DNA from: Candidatus Heimdallarchaeota archaeon
GTDB lineage: Archaea > Asgardarchaeota > Heimdallarchaeia > JABLTI01
Direction of reading: 5' to 3'
DNA length: 25,259 nt
Assembly (NCBI GenBank): GCA_019058275.1
Contig: JAHLVW010000080.1
Span: forward strand, 1-25,259
Positions 23 to 24,467 of the stretch are shown here, piece after piece. Position 1 is the first letter of the stretch; each line of letters starts with the position of its first letter. A program made the position numbers and the translations under genes. A model generated the notes under the pieces. The model was not told the origin of the DNA. It made no database searches and was given only the letters and a program-made list of their open reading frames with translations.

Positions 23-119
23 ATGCTCAGCCAGCAGGTACTTACCACTTCAGCATGTCATTACCAACCTGGACTTCTAGCCCTTCAAGAAGAAGTGGGT
101 GCAGTGATTCTACATTTTT
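23..119 (+). repeat. Intergenic repeat copy 1 (full length; 28-bp core 71..98; type-A right flank GTGCAGTGATTCTAC + T-run)
   Basis: ATGCTCAGCCAGCAGGTACTTACCACTTCAGCATGTCATTACCAACCT-GGACTTCTAGCCCTTCAAGAAGAAGTGG-GTGCAGTGATTCTAC; colinear with the copy at 24370..24467. Confidence 0.95.
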
Positions 120-271
120 GATTATTTTTTTATTTTCTTTTGTGAAAATCAAATTTAGTTGAAATTGTTTTTTTACATTTTCATTAGTAACAATTCCTAA
201 TTAACTAAATCATTAAACGTAAACATTATAAAGTTTGGAATGATATACAAATGTAATTTGGAGAGATTATT

Positions 272-1249
272 TTGACGAATATTTTAATTAATGGTAAGAA
301 GTTTTCGATACTGGATTTTGAATCAGAAAAAGAATTTGAAGAAGCAGTAATTGCTAATAGCAGGTATCTTTTTGGTAATGATACTGTATACATTGATACT
401 AAAATGAGGATAGGCGAGAAAAAATCCTACCACAAAACTATTCCTGATGGTTACTTAATTGATTTCACTAGTAAAAAAAGACCACAACTCTATTTTGTGG
501 AAAACGAGCTCTCAAGTCATGATGCGTATAGTCACATTGCAGAACAAATTTTACGATTCAGTACTGCCATTAAAACAAGCCAAATTGAGATTAGAAAGAA
601 GCTAATAGAACGAATAAAGAAAATTACTGATATTAAAAATGAAATTGAGAAATTTGGATTGGAAGGTGGATTCAATAATATTGATGAAATAATCAATTAT
701 CTCGTAGATAACAAAATCAAGATTGTTGTTGTCATTGATGAAGTAACTTATGATTTGAATTTATCATTAGCTGAATTAAGAAGTAGTCCTGATGTTGTGA
801 CAATAAAACGTTATTGGCATAAGGATGAAATAATCTATTTATACGATCCGATGAGAGAGGAAATTAGTGATCTAGAAGAGGATGAGTTAGATTCAGCTGA
901 AGAATTTGATACAATTGTTTGTTCAGCTTTAGAAGAAGGTTTTGAGTATGCTTACGTCGAGCGAGATGCTTGGTGGGAAATTAGACTTTCACAGAAAGCA
1001 CGTGAAAAATTGAAATACTTGGCAATTTATATAAAATCACCAATAGCTGAGATTAGTCATTATGCAGAAATTGATAAAATTGAACCTTATCAAAACAGTG
1101 GTAAGTATATATTACATCTGAAGAATAAGCAAATAATTGATCCTATTCCTTTAGATAAAAATAATAGAACTGGAGTTGCTCCCCAAGCACATCGATATAC
1201 TACATTTGCAAAACTAATGAAAGCTAAGAAATTAAGTGACTTATGGTGA
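272..1249 (+). CDS. Putative PD-(D/E)XK nuclease fused to a C-terminal PUA/EVE-like domain (candidate restriction/defence enzyme)
   Basis: N-terminal IPDGYLID...YFVENEL resembles a PD-(D/E)XK-type motif. C-terminal DTIV..A.EEGF...W..IRL...KYLAIY..SPI..ISHYAEI..IEP..SGKY...PQ..RYT resembles the domain fused to GIY-YIG/T5orf172-type nucleases. TTG start with GGAGA upstream. Confidence 0.55.
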   Translation: MTNILINGKKFSILDFESEKEFEEAVIANSRYLFGNDTVYIDTKMRIGEKKSYHKTIPDGYLIDFTSKKRPQLYFVENELSSHDAYSHIAEQILRFSTAIKTSQIEIRKKLIERIKKITDIKNEIEKFGLEGGFNNIDEIINYLVDNKIKIVVVIDEVTYDLNLSLAELRSSPDVVTIKRYWHKDEIIYLYDPMREEISDLEEDELDSAEEFDTIVCSALEEGFEYAYVERDAWWEIRLSQKAREKLKYLAIYIKSPIAEISHYAEIDKIEPYQNSGKYILHLKNKQIIDPIPLDKNNRTGVAPQAHRYTTFAKLMKAKKLSDLW

Positions 1250-1280
1250 AATTCACTATTTACTGGAAGTTAATTCGAGT

Positions 1281-1378
1281 CACCAAAGCATGTCCTTTCA
1301 GACCTGGTTATCTACCCCTTCAAGAAGAAGTGGATGCAAGAGCTTCTACTTTTTTTCCTTGCTTAGCCTAGGCAGGTT
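1281..1378 (+). repeat. Repeat copy 2 (core 1306..1333) plus distal GCTTAGCCTAGGCAGGTT motif
   Basis: CACCAAAGCATGTCCTTTCAGACCT-GGTTATCTACCCCTTCAAGAAGAAGTGG-ATGCAAGAGCTTCTAC. Confidence 0.9.
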
Positions 1379-1388
1379 AGAGGTGTGT

Positions 1389-2066
1389 CTATGAAAATAA
1401 GTAATGCATTGCAGTTTTTTCAGCTTTTCGTAAATGCTCATTTACTGCAGAAATTGAAATATTAAAATGGGCAGCTAATTCTTCTGCACTAATTTTTTTC
1501 GGGGATTTATAATATCCCTTACGTGTGGCAAATAATGCTATCTCATGTTGTTTTATTGGAAAATATGGATATGGATGAGTATTGCGTAAAACCTGTCTTG
1601 TTTGAAGATCCAATTGCTCAGGAACATTATGAAGGTTATTAATTGAAATAACCTCTATTTTATCAATAATTTTTGACCATTTCTTGTATATATCCTCAAA
1701 TTTGTCTTTGATTATTATACTAATTTTTATGAATTCTTCATCAATAATTATCGGAGGACAGATTACCCAAGACCCTGATATGATTTTTGGCCAGAATCCA
1801 CTCTCTCTCTTAAGCGTCATTATACATAACACGATATTACCCTTTTCTTCAAGTATTTGAAAAGAACTCGGTTGAAATACCTTATTTATGATTTTCTCAT
1901 AATCCATATTTTTATCTTTAAACGTAATTCTTTTCAGTGTGTAAAAATTCAACCGATTGTAATGAAAAATATCTATAACTTCTATAAATTTAATTTCTGT
2001 GAAGGAGTTTAGTAATTTTAGCGAAAAAAGATTTTCTACTCCATATCGCAATTTGACGATCTTCAT
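1389..2066 (-). CDS. HTH_10 (bacterio-opsin activator/Bat-type) transcriptional regulator, divergent from the AOR operon
   Basis: C-terminal KQHEIALFATRKGYYKSPKKISAEELAAHFNISISAVNEHLRKAE is a typical archaeal HTH_10. Confidence 0.85.
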   Translation of the reverse strand: MKIVKLRYGVENLFSLKLLNSFTEIKFIEVIDIFHYNRLNFYTLKRITFKDKNMDYEKIINKVFQPSSFQILEEKGNIVLCIMTLKRESGFWPKIISGSWVICPPIIIDEEFIKISIIIKDKFEDIYKKWSKIIDKIEVISINNLHNVPEQLDLQTRQVLRNTHPYPYFPIKQHEIALFATRKGYYKSPKKISAEELAAHFNISISAVNEHLRKAEKTAMHYLFS

Positions 2067-2252
2067 ATTTTTTCAAGGTTTTTTAATATATTTAAATAAC
2101 TTGTGATTGCAAGCATCAAATTTAAAGTATTAATCTCCCTTATATTATGTTAAAAAGTAATTTTTTGTGAATGATCTAAGTAAAACTTTCAGATTTATTG
2201 AGAATTGAGTTATGTACAAAAAATAAGAAAAAAAAGTCAAGGTGAAAATAAA

Positions 2253-22656: not shown

Positions 22657-22779
22657 CTATGCTTGTTTGTGGTAAAAAACATTAGAAAAAATATTTACTT
22701 GATTAATCCCAATGGTTGGAAAAACCACTAAGAAAATGGCTATTGGAAAAATCCCAATAATTTTTTTGTTTTTATTCAA
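22657..22779 (-). pseudogene. Possible signal-peptide-only remnant of a secreted protein gene (40 aa)
   Basis: GAGGT RBS, TTG, then NKNKKIIGIFPIAIFLVVFPTIGINQV...HKQA*. Confidence 0.3.
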
Positions 22780-23001
22780 AGTACCTCTCACCATCTATCA
22801 TACAATCATCAACAATATTAAGCAAATTTTCTATTATTCTTATCAATCTAGAAGAATTTATTCAATAAAATTATTGTTCATGAATTCAGCGTTCTGCTCC
22901 AAACTGAACTAACCATCCAAGACAAACACAGCGATAAAATCATTTTATTCTAAACAGAATTTTTTTAAGGAAGAGGGGAATGGTTTATTGGATGTAATAT
23001 T

Positions 23002-24183
23002 ATGAAAAAATTTCCTTCATACCTAGGGGTTAAAGCTTTTGGTGTCAAAATTGGCGCTGTTCTCCCAAGAGATAATATCGTAGAGGAGGTTTGTAAAGCG
23101 GTTAAAAAATGCCATGAAGACCATCTAATCGATGACAGGGACATCGTTTGTGTCAAGGAGTCAATCGTTGCGCGAGCACAGAATAATTTCATCTCTAAGG
23201 AAGACATTGGTAAAGAAGTAAAGGAAAAATTAAAGCTATCAAAGACGGACACGCTTGGTATACTTTTTCCGATAGCAAGCCGGAATCGGTTTGTGCCTAT
23301 CTTGGAGGGACTGGTGACAGCTGTCCCCAAGGGCAAAGTGGTCATCCAATTTTCTTATCCTAGAGATTGTGTGGGAAATCAGATCGCCCCTGAGGAGTTA
23401 GAGGAGCAACTAGGTATCAATCTTAGTAGAGAGGAGATATTTGCAGACCAATTACAAAAATATGATTTTCGTCACCCAGCCACGGGTGTGAATTATTTGA
23501 GCGTATATGAAGAGATCATCAAAAAAGCTGATGTTGAAGTAGAGATTTTCCTATCCAACAACACTAGTAAAATACTCGACCATAAGCCAAAGGGTATCCT
23601 TGTGGCGTGCATCCATGAAAGGGATAAAGTGCTTGAAAAAATAAAAAAGGTTTTTGAAAATGCTATCACTATGCAGGATCTATTCAATGACAGCAGAAGA
23701 GCAGTCTGGTCAGAGTGGGGGCTTCTCGGAACGAACATGTACTCTGAGGACAAAATAAAGCTCCCCCCGAGGGAGTCTTTTAATGTTGCTAAGACTATCC
23801 AGAAAGCAATAAACGACACTACTGGAAAAAAGGTGGAGGTAATGATATATGGTGATGGAGCGTACATGGATCCTTCAACAGGGATATATGAGCTGGCTGA
23901 TCCAGTCTGTTCCTTTGGCCACAGCGACGGGCTGAATAGAAGACGGGAAGGGATAAAATACAAATTTTTTGTTGGTACCCTACATGCCCAAGGAAAAAAG
24001 AAGGGAGAGATTGAAGAAATCATCGATGAACAAAAACAGAAAATGTATGAGATAGATAATATCTCTATGGAGGGCACCACACCCAGAAAACTTGAAGACA
24101 TAGCAGGCAGCTTAGCAGATCTCGTGAGCGGTTCCGCAGATGCTGGCACGCCACTAGTAATTATTAAAGACCTCTTACAATAA
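23002..24183 (+). CDS. F420-0:gamma-glutamyl ligase (CofE)-like family protein, long form
   Basis: GVKAFGVKIG...DNIVE, DIVCVKESIVARAQNN, VMIYGDGAY.DP..GIYELADP, EGTTPRKLEDIAGSLADLVSGSADAGTPLVII. Confidence 0.8.
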   Translation: MKKFPSYLGVKAFGVKIGAVLPRDNIVEEVCKAVKKCHEDHLIDDRDIVCVKESIVARAQNNFISKEDIGKEVKEKLKLSKTDTLGILFPIASRNRFVPILEGLVTAVPKGKVVIQFSYPRDCVGNQIAPEELEEQLGINLSREEIFADQLQKYDFRHPATGVNYLSVYEEIIKKADVEVEIFLSNNTSKILDHKPKGILVACIHERDKVLEKIKKVFENAITMQDLFNDSRRAVWSEWGLLGTNMYSEDKIKLPPRESFNVAKTIQKAINDTTGKKVEVMIYGDGAYMDPSTGIYELADPVCSFGHSDGLNRRREGIKYKFFVGTLHAQGKKKGEIEEIIDEQKQKMYEIDNISMEGTTPRKLEDIAGSLADLVSGSADAGTPLVIIKDLLQ

Positions 24184-24187
24184 AAAA

Positions 24188-24264
24188 TGGCGCATGGGAG
24201 CAGATTTGAACTGTTGCTCTCTTGTTTGTAATACTGGTGTCATAAACGACTAGACCACCATCTG
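24188..24264 (-). pseudogene. Degenerate tRNA-Val(TAC)-like sequence with encoded CCA
   Basis: Minus strand: CAGATGG TG GTCTAGTCGTTTATGAC A CCAGT ATTACAA ACAAG AGAGC AACAG TTCAAAT CTGCT CCCATGC G CCA. D-arm, T-loop, spacing and CCA are recognisable; acceptor and anticodon stems are mispaired. Confidence 0.65.
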
Positions 24265-24369
24265 TTAGGAGAACGGTTATTTGTAAGAGGGGAATAATCC
24301 TCCCCTCAGAACGTTTCTTCTTTAGATTTTTCACGTACATGGTATTACCAAGGATTCGGTTGAGATGAG

Positions 24370-24467
24370 ATGCTCAGCCAGCAGATACTTCCTACTTAAG
24401 CGTGTCATTACCGAAACGGACTTCTAGCCCTTAAAGAAGAAGTGTGCGCAGTGATTCTACTTTTTTT
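24370..24467 (+). repeat. Repeat copy 13 (full length; core 24418..24445; type-A right flank)
   Basis: ATGCTCAGCCAGCAGATACTTCCTACTTAAGCGTGTCATTACCGAAAC-GGACTTCTAGCCCTTAAAGAAGAAGTGT-GCGCAGTGATTCTAC. Confidence 0.95.

Follow-up and report, generated by a model that had tools for sequence, protein, structure and literature searches.

Gene cassettes between 23S rRNA gene-end copies in a Heimdallarchaeota genome

Genomic islands accrete in tandem at the 3' ends of tRNA, tmRNA or housekeeping genes, as in composite staphylococcal cassette chromosome (SCC) elements at rlmH and in the duplication of the icd 3' end by phage 21 and e14. Modules can also be bounded by pdif sites, 28-bp Xer sites that alternate in orientation and have a 6-bp spacer between two 11-bp arms. 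Integrons have also been described in archaea (Ghaly et al. 2022, Sci Adv, PMC9668308). In Ca. Heimdallarchaeum, the 8-kb element HeimM2 lies directly after the 16S gene and carries a homing-endonuclease-like gene and a leucine-rich repeat (LRR) gene (Wu et al. 2022, Nat Microbiol, PMC8813620). Homology-facilitated illegitimate recombination was described in the laboratory for naturally transformable bacteria (de Vries and Wackernagel 2002, PNAS, PMC122324, as cited in PMC8504540). Here we describe contig JAHLVW010000080.1 (C75; 25,259 nucleotides (nt)) of the Candidatus Heimdallarchaeota assembly GCA_019058275.1 (G000), in which gene modules alternate with copies of the end of the 23S rRNA gene. 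The entire contig was analysed and is called the window. It is an internal part of one large cassette array behind the genome's single 23S rRNA gene. Literature searches returned no description of rRNA-tail cassette arrays, which is not proof of novelty.

The core of the repeat, CTTNAAGRAGAAGTG, had 14 matches in the window with up to 2 mismatches, and 13 of these were on the + strand (83, 1318, 7550, 9492, 10935, 11590, 12390, 13774, 18162, 19693, 20460, 22483 and 24430). Only 0.75 matches were expected by chance, and 100 shuffles gave 3 at most. The position of 13 of 13 copies on one strand had P ~2e-4. The single - strand match (5385, 2 mismatches) was within a radical-SAM open reading frame (ORF) and looks like chance. 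A repeat search of the window gave families of 7-10 co-oriented copies, and a profile built from eight copies picked up 10 window copies with nhmmer at E<=0.05. The spacing had a median of 1.5 kb and a range of 0.66-6.2 kb. Seven copies were ~75-100 nt long, and the remaining copies were truncated on the left. All copies were located between long ORFs, which were mechanical calls, many of them without a family. The aldehyde:ferredoxin oxidoreductase (AOR) operon, vapBC, the ABC pair and the two-gene blocks were each undivided by a repeat. The initial annotation had described about 13 co-oriented sites that interrupt no gene and divide no operon, and the array proved real in these respects. Its positions agreed with ours at an offset of ~12 nt upstream, because they were placed earlier within the repeat.

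The genome is a metagenome-assembled genome (MAG) of 4.12 Mb in 118 contigs with 32.5% GC, 92.8% completeness and 6.8% contamination. The profile gave 67 matches genome-wide (62 at E<=0.01), on only six of the 118 contigs (C98, C35, C80, C38, C75 and C99). The copies shared one orientation on each contig, with the exception of a small inverted cluster on C98. This cluster consisted of three weak 23S-tail copies at C98:55151-57029, 45 kb upstream of the 23S gene, and the earlier statement that no reverse copy was seen was correct for the window and does not extend genome-wide. A dispersed repeat had been expected to be scattered through the genome in both orientations; the scan showed clustered copies that were co-oriented within each contig. 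The summed spacings came to ~104 kb, ~3% of the genome, with a genome-wide median of 1.2 kb. On a 108-kb contig of GCA_019058195.1, the genes of C38 continued straight into the left end of the window, and therefore these pieces belong to one array. Such arrays break MAG assemblies, since the one here was split over six contigs and the window was a whole contig. When the window proteins were searched against other assemblies, matches were found only in assemblies of the same organism, and these gave no population variants. Public records with the same core were all labelled Heimdallarchaeota MAGs, except for a few evident mislabels.

Rfam located the archaeal large subunit (LSU) rRNA, the single 23S gene, at C98:98488-102769 (2340 bits). 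The first copy of the C98 array was the 3' end of this gene, and the array started exactly at the genuine 23S 3' end. BLAST of the genuine end against the genome found 51 further places, which reached from -114 to +35, or to ~+50-60, and once to +66. Each site combined the last 0-114 nt of the 23S gene with 35-60 nt from the start of the trailer. The trailer portion was up to ~170 nt in some species. In the 23S processing stem, the best-conserved piece, GGACTTCTAGACCTTAAAGAAGAAGTGTG, corresponded to the 3' strand. Pairing in the predicted fold is between CACACTTCTTCAAG...TCTAGA of the leader and TCTAGACCTTAAAGAAGAAGTGTG of the trailer, and the core is therefore identified as the 3' arm of this stem. 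Cofolding of the genuine leader with the genuine trailer gave -51.9 kcal/mol and a predicted bulge-helix-bulge-like motif, made of a 14-bp helix, a 3-nt leader loop opposite a 2-nt trailer loop, a 3-bp helix, 2-nt loops and a 6-bp helix. It differed from the canonical 3-4-3 form. The variable N of the core fell in the predicted 3-nt bulge. Rfam and tRNA scans of the window gave no match; for Rfam, this was because the copies were too short for the LSU model. The site had been taken for an unfamiliar new type, which was not borne out: it is a copy of the 23S rRNA 3' end and trailer, in an array anchored at the 23S gene. Such orphan rRNA tails can confuse rRNA annotation.

Two extensions followed the core. 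Type A (GAGTCCGAGCATCA) matched the genuine trailers of G000 and of the related genome G009, and type B (GCAGTGATTCTAC and a T-run) matched the G008 and G010 trailers. The repeat unit of these last two genomes was ~230 nt long and comprised the 23S tail, the core, the T-run, a hairpin (CCCTACAGTCTCAGGTGAGACTAGGG) and a second, bulge-less motif AACTTGAAGAAGTAA. The latter was located ~135 nt past the core, at the very point from which the cassette DNA is unique. This unit was seen at G010 L020:4700-5400 (-), in array copies of L022, L025 and L026, and at G008 L019:1012-1250. The type-B copies of G000, including window 24476-24530, had a shorter version. The 23S gene itself spans 4.28 kb and has an intron with a 185-aa LAGLIDADG_1 ORF at C98:100717-101274 (L001:10717-11274). 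A near-identical intron ORF was present in the 23S gene of species G006.

The distribution among relatives was then compared. All 10 genus-mates had the repeat, and it was absent from the 30 genomes searched outside the genus but within the class. Loci fetched from five relatives had uniformly oriented copies in every locus. In 55 JGI metagenome loci, the copies numbered 149; where a locus had several copies (35 loci), their orientation was uniform in 34. All-against-all comparison of the arrays showed that many modules were common to several species or repeated within one genome, some of them 2-3 times. The shared homology ended in or near the flanking repeats, and the orientation of a module relative to the repeat was always kept. 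The order was scrambled. Consecutive modules of G005:C141 mapped to C99, C35, C35, C80, C38, C75 and C80 of G000. The window cassette with the CofE-like gene (22760-24444) was 93.5% identical to G005:C141 9369-11054, where the neighbours differ, and further cassettes of this pair were 96.4, 94.1, 91.6 and 88% identical. The core genomes were only ~66-80% identical in two 10-kb samples. Because the cassettes were at 88-96% against ~66-80%, the comparison points to recent movement of cassettes between species, or to a shared pool on which they draw. The initial annotation had named module gain, loss or shuffling at the core as a check, and the species comparison gave direct evidence of these at the repeats. 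Its site-gene-site cassette array was upheld as clustered, co-oriented, genus-wide and shuffled at the repeats, and neither of the patterns that it had listed as contradicting an array was seen; the new site type and the dedicated site-specific recombinase were not upheld. A large FtsX/ABC cassette formed the 'edge' of C38 and occurred also inside a G010 array.

The other rRNA flanks gave a similar picture. The 16S gene is at C115:92-1613 (-), and its trailer overlaps the start of C98 (loci C115:1-1613 and C98:1-12230; L066, L067). Behind this gene were two extra co-oriented copies of its last ~18 nt and ~150-nt trailer, at C98:7292-7460 (94%) and C98:12068-12230 (76% by BLAST). The modules that they bounded encoded ordinary cargo, namely a solute-binding protein (SBP), FtsX/MacB-like proteins and a PPDK_N/receiver protein. 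In addition, the part of the 16S leader from 120 to 280 nt upstream of the gene (160 nt) recurred 9.5 kb upstream in the same orientation (C115:11300-11458 vs C115:1733-1892). The leader duplicates enclosed an FtsX-FtsX-ABC operon of two long FtsX proteins and an ABC ATPase. The same domain make-up was seen in the 23S-array cassettes C38:14031-21283 and G010 L023:10882-15444. The motif AAGAAGYGTGAGT was common to the 16S trailer end and the 23S core. As CTAGA...AAGAAGYGTGAGT, it was shared by the distal 16S trailer (GGGCTAGAAAGAAGCGTGAGTTTGG and a T-run; C98:1-160) and the 23S core (CTAGACCTTAAAGAAGAAGTGTGAGTCC; C98:102780-102810). Either a common origin of the two flanks or a recognition or processing signal used by both could account for this.

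The genome G033 belongs to another Heimdall family. Its own 23S tail with ~130-nt trailer is unrelated in sequence and recurred there as ~16-23 co-oriented partial copies within 40 kb (C8:10001-50000; L074, L075). The boundaries of these copies varied on both sides, and individual copies kept different parts of the trailer. Matches were given by 16 of the 21 genomes of its genus (g4). No 23S-tail copies were found within 40 kb downstream of the 23S genes in the complete Heimdallarchaeum-type genomes G016 and G026, nor within 40 kb of the 23S gene in one g5 genome. By genus, arrays were present in g1 and g4 and were not seen behind the 23S gene in g5 and g6. The 23S search gave no match in the single-contig genomes G043 and G046, whose clusters were not placeable relative to the rRNA gene.

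Based on these comparisons, we considered how the cassettes might move. The points at which homologous sequence switches to unrelated sequence were mapped on a handful of high-identity pairs, and they varied widely. The switch was at ~-20 between window copy 13 (24369) and L029 of G005, at or before -45 between C99 and L029, and beyond +48 between C38 and L027 of G005. It was within +17..+30, inside CTTNAAGAAGAAG, for a toxin-antitoxin cassette with three copies in G010. For G008 compared with G010 it was at +170, as their genuine 23S loci were 96% identical up to the second motif CTTGAAGAAGTAA and unrelated beyond. The left boundaries of the repeats formed a continuum, and the identity to the genuine sequence climbed smoothly from 0.67 at -43 to 0.90 at +7..+35. 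The copies also followed the trailer variant of their host, with 48 TG-type and 1 CGAG-type in G000, and 21 CGAG-type and 2 TG-type in G010. About nine G010 copies repeated ~230 nt of the genuine flank. As the copies matched their host's own trailer, their likeness within a genome is a case of concerted evolution.

Because the switch points and repeat boundaries vary, the copies track their own trailer and unrelated flanks show the same pattern, we prefer, with about even confidence in this mechanism, recombination driven by homology between rRNA-flank repeats to the action of a dedicated site-specific enzyme. New DNA would enter beside the rRNA gene in events through which the rRNA flank becomes duplicated. 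Circles bearing such a flank copy might integrate in the Campbell manner, or foreign DNA might be inserted with the conserved rRNA gene as its homologous anchor. The resulting direct repeats would serve host homologous recombination as portable homology arms, through which cassettes could also be duplicated. Recombination between two repeats would delete or excise cassettes. Incoming repeat-cassette-repeat DNA could recombine with any two resident repeats, which would lead to insertion or replacement of a cassette. Cassettes could be imported in this way even between species that have diverged too far for recombination in the rest of their DNA. Within a genome, the likeness of the repeats would be maintained through gene conversion by the functional 23S trailer. 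Deletion between repeats would cause losses, which the many toxin-antitoxin cassettes would oppose, as in chromosomal integrons.

The main rival is an unlikely but serious one: some dedicated site-specific recombinase, with its gene elsewhere or from a family not yet known, may recognise the 23S trailer core and insert and excise small circular cassettes, analogous to IntI/attC or to Xer-exploiting elements. The small size of the cassettes, the 62-67 sites and the strict co-orientation are in line with such an enzyme. The core was the best-conserved part and persisted in left-truncated copies, the toxin-antitoxin cassette of G010 switched to different neighbours inside CTTNAAGAAGAAG, and a similar motif was present at the 16S trailer end. 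However, the switch points ranged from -45 to +170, and the G033 copies kept non-overlapping parts of the trailer with no single core common to all. The 16S leader was duplicated too, despite its unrelated sequence. The inverted repeat of the core was only 6 nt with a 12-nt gap (ACTTCT...AGAAGT), which in its layout is unlike the 11-6-11 arrangement of Xer sites.

A search for the enzyme itself was also unsuccessful. The genome had six tyrosine recombinase genes (PF00589), all on non-array contigs, and two resolvase genes (PF00239), both off the array contigs. IS110 (PF01548) and HUH-Y1 (PF01797) genes were absent, with no hit on the array contigs. At the array edges, which are C98 upstream of the 23S gene, C80 after 17.6 kb and C38 after 13.4 kb, unrelated proteins were encoded and no recombinase was found. 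With the six integrases and the intron endonuclease as queries, phmmer found no relative in 422 array ORFs, except for the endonuclease of the 23S intron in G006, and none in 367 kb of metagenomic arrays. The dedicated recombinase that the initial annotation had placed outside the window was thus missing from the array ends, from the interior of arrays in at least five genomes and from these metagenomic arrays. A 228-aa ORF directly upstream of the 23S gene (P0002) was considered as a recombinase and rejected; it is membrane-anchored and charged, and has a zinc ribbon and no recombinase features. The XerA-like tyrosine recombinase on C55, with ~60 extra residues, was conserved in the genus at 64-70% identity, and its only other matches were 24-29% identical, in the array-bearing genus g4. 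A C9/C5-type tyrosine recombinase was patchy in the genus (3 of 10). Neither was linked to the arrays. The conservation of the C55 protein in the genus speaks for the rival, and this protein is the only, weak candidate for a factor acting in trans.

Several points weigh against recombination by homology alone. The recombination events are read from sequence comparison. The 15-29-nt core was retained in copies without anything to its left, and identity peaked at 0.90 at +7..+35 vs 0.67-0.81 in the 23S part. This pattern resembles that of a protein-binding or crossover site, and it could alternatively come from ascertainment or gene conversion. Part of the signal may be ascertainment, because copies without a core escape detection. 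Recombination may also be inefficient on repeats that are short (~80-100 nt) and 80-90% identical. The first acquisition of an rRNA flank by a brand-new gene is left unexplained by the homology model. A trans-acting or wholly novel recombinase is possible, given a MAG that is 92.8% complete, many cassette ORFs without a family and the XerA-like protein elsewhere in the genome. The presence of AAGAAGYGTGAGT in both the 16S trailer end and the 23S core might mark a common recognition sequence.

We also considered serial integration of complete mobile elements, such as proviruses, plasmids or islands, with an integrase that targets the 23S 3' end, much as tRNA genes or, for SCCmec, rlmH are targeted, followed by decay to cargo and att remnants. 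The array begins at the genuine gene end and its copies look like att sites that restore the gene 3' end. HeimM2 was likewise inserted right after the 16S gene in Heimdallarchaeum (PMC8813620), and LRR genes were also present in the arrays. However, the modules were only one or two genes long, and more than 400 array ORFs contained no remnant of an integrase, endonuclease, replication or structural gene. The exact core had no match in 2.9 million viral contigs. There was also no age gradient along C98, where the distal copies C98:123730 and 128732 were 91-97% identical to the genuine end and the proximal ones were short. Simple proximal stacking of insertions was therefore rejected, and the cassettes appeared shuffled rather than stacked in order. 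We regard this origin as improbable.

A role at the RNA level seemed still less probable. In this case, the copies would pair with the single 23S leader and give alternative cuts and joins by the splicing endonuclease, or act as terminators or insulators, and the array layout would be secondary. Complementarity to the leader was strong in all 13 window copies (-19 to -35 kcal/mol), random 36-mers from the window giving -9.7 +/- 3.6, and the variable N in the predicted bulge fits such pairing. The copies co-varied with the stem variant of their own species, and the T-run at the end of type-B copies is typical of archaeal terminators. However, any copy of the trailer is automatically complementary, and the co-variation is explained by concerted evolution. 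Five of the 13 window modules were on the opposite strand, and the T-runs would stop read-through long before 100 kb. There is a single 5' strand, of which BLAST of the 23S leader found no other copy. A classical integron or a cluster of attC sites lacking integron integrases (CALIN), or a dispersed repeat of the miniature inverted-repeat transposable element (MITE) or repetitive extragenic palindromic (REP) type, is hardly credible, although the site-gene-site layout, toxin-antitoxin cassettes and co-orientation resemble chromosomal integrons and archaeal integrons are described (PMC9668308): no tested copy folded better than shuffles on either strand (eight single-strand folds, z -1.35 to +0.88), alifold of 29 copies as RNA and DNA supported a 5-bp hairpin only, the alignment had no RYYYAAC/GTTRRRY ends, as initially reported, no IntI was found, the repeat is homologous to rRNA, and copies were confined to 6 of 118 contigs with no terminal inverted repeats or target duplications seen.

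The individual copies in the window, all on the + strand, differed in their preservation. Copy 1 (22..129) comprised 23S -41..0, the trailer core to +33 and a type-B extension (GCAGTGATTCTAC and a T-run). It had 93.7 bits by nhmmer and was 88% identical to the genuine 23S end over -41..+33 by BLAST; an equal-scoring counterpart in both searches was found at C38:2105-2201. Copy 2 (1258..1352; 67 bits) had a diverged 23S part, an exact core at 1318 and a type-B extension. Copy 3 (7542..7577; 25.7 bits) was left-truncated, with an exact core at 7550 and a type-B-like extension. Copy 4 (9489..9574) was also left-truncated, with an exact core at 9492 and a type-B extension that continued to TTTTTTCCTAGCTTAGCTTAGGCAGGTT. 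This stretch was common to copies 4 and 2 (family D14, 1351-1378/9547-9574, 93%). Copy 5 (10875..10969; 67 bits, BLAST -3..+35) had a decayed 23S part, the core and a type-B extension, and copy 6 (11578..11608) had only the core, exact at 11590. Copy 7 (12329..12436; 77 bits) covered -26..+48, also by BLAST, with a type-A extension (GAGTCCTGAGTATCA) that resembles the genome's own 23S trailer.

Copy 8 (13762..13800) was degenerate, with 2 mismatches in its core at 13774. It was backed by a duplicated stretch of 250 nt, because 13808-14058 after copy 8 duplicates 12417-12669 after copy 7 (families D4/D7, 80-87%). This meant that two neighbouring cassettes share a long leader. The leader contained a TATA-like TTTTAAAA. 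Copy 9 (18150..18176; CTATAGAC-ATTAAAGATGAAGTG) was degenerate and the weakest, with 2 mismatches in its core at 18162. Copies 10 to 13 were all found by BLAST as well as nhmmer. Copy 10 (19632..19719; 74.6 bits) covered -44..+35, copy 11 (20399..20506; 84.9 bits) covered -48..+49 with a type-A extension, and copy 12 (22426..22529; 75.3 bits, BLAST 89%) covered -24..+48 with a type-A extension. Copy 13 (24369..24476; 91.6 bits, BLAST 91%) covered -44..+35 with a type-B extension and T-run, followed by a hairpin GCTTAGTTTCACTAAG and a second degenerate motif.

The cassettes between these copies carried accessory genes. Cassette 1 (130..1257, +) had a 325-aa ORF without a Pfam family. Cassette 2 (1353..7541; 6.2 kb) encoded an HTH_10 regulator on the - strand and then, on the + strand, an AOR with N-terminal SCP2 domains, a ThiS-like protein, a radical-SAM/SPASM protein and an SDR. 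The AOR ORF (2205-4868) was 887 aa in the mechanical call or 871 aa in the call of the other assembly. Its N-terminal extension consists of SCP2 sterol-carrier-like domains, an unusual fusion, and its DNA holds an internal 300-nt direct repeat (2256-2555 / 2616-2915, 83%). Cassette 3 (7578..9488, +) encoded a 610-aa beta-lactamase-family hydrolase. Cassettes 4 and 5 (9575..11577) had ORFs of 328 aa (+) and 104 aa (-) without a Pfam family. Cassette 6 (11609..12328, +) carried a vapB-vapC (PIN) toxin-antitoxin pair, which had a 78% identical counterpart between repeats in species G008. Cassettes 7 and 8 (12437..18149, +) encoded a 4Fe-4S protein and then an ABC exporter gene pair.

Cassettes 9-11 (18177..22425) were all on the - strand and encoded an AAT-family acyltransferase/hydrolase, 154+66-aa ORFs and 151+390-aa ORFs, in this order. 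Cassette 12 (22530..24368, +) carried a gene of the CofE-like F420-0:gamma-glutamyl-ligase family (23002-24183), with a GC content of 0.42 vs 0.32 for the genome. Its relatives were in Heimdall MAGs (82-86%), in other archaea (~61-68%) and then in Firmicutes (Dethiobacter, Natranaerobius; ~50%). Cassette 13 (24477..25259, -), cut by the contig end, had a 212-aa ORF of a family recurrent in the arrays. The array cargo as a whole was accessory and included VapBC, HEPN-MNT and DUF433/PIN-like pairs, a RIO kinase, LRR and TSP3-repeat proteins, ABC/FtsX exporters, SDRs and hydrolases. The most recurrent ORF family in the arrays examined had 11 members of up to ~340 aa, mostly in G010 and without a Pfam match: P0001 (G010 L026:2581-3600, -) and 10 further ORFs or fragments, including G000 C80:8525-9181.

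Taken together, we tentatively propose, with somewhat less than even confidence, that Heimdall-group Asgard archaea have a distinctive gene-capture and exchange system. Copies of the ends of rRNA genes and of the arms of their processing stems would act as universal, cross-species recombination sites for cassettes, served by host homologous recombination alone, as a recombinase-free 'integron', or by an undescribed enzyme family. It would build ~100-kb arrays behind the 23S gene and smaller ones behind the 16S gene. If this is true, an integron-type site-gene-site logic arose independently in the archaeal lineage closest to eukaryotes, with rRNA gene tails as its material and perhaps without a dedicated recombinase. 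It would also be a tangible path by which the extensive gene flow described for Asgard genomes could take place. Because the repeats are linked to the cell's most conserved genes, they would stay similar across species whose other DNA is only ~70-77% identical. The arrays put accessory and defence-type genes beside the rRNA genes, and the link to the processing stem raises the question of whether the copies interfere with rRNA maturation or exploit it.

Compared with known systems, the layout and dynamics are like those of a sedentary chromosomal integron, and neither of the two defining features, IntI and attC, was found. Like the Vibrio super-integron type and archaeal CALINs, there is a ~100-kb array of one- or two-gene cassettes with co-oriented, lineage-specific repeats of ~100 nt. 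Many cassettes are toxin-antitoxin pairs, and close species differ in content yet have cassettes in common. Each cassette is followed by a co-oriented site and the content varies between relatives, both of which are integron traits. However, the site is a copy of the rRNA gene end and not an attC hairpin, the array is anchored at the 23S gene without IntI, attI or the cassette promoter Pc, the genes lie in either orientation, and the repeat boundaries and switch points are variable. The pdif modules and integrative mobile elements exploiting Xer (IMEX) are similar in that short sites bound modules without their own recombinase, and there a host enzyme serves. The repeats here are in contrast rRNA-derived and all co-oriented, with no Xer-like 11-6-11 architecture seen.

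Homology-facilitated illegitimate recombination differs in that it is not known as the builder of a standing cassette array. It is similar in that a conserved anchor admits adjacent foreign DNA, which would explain the build-up beside the most conserved genes and the variable far junctions. In island accretion of the tRNA/tmRNA type, as here, the direct repeats are the 3' part of a conserved gene, the first copy is the intact gene and a co-oriented series follows downstream. However, the target here is an rRNA gene with its processing stem, and dozens of cassette-size units are shuffled rather than stacked, with no integrase or element backbone in any unit. The nearest published relative that we found is HeimM2. 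Unlike this single 8-kb element with a homing-endonuclease-like gene, the present arrays consist of small cassettes without such a gene. Like HeimM2, they are insertions behind an rRNA gene in a Heimdall-group archaeon with LRR cargo, and G000 also has modules bounded by 16S tails.

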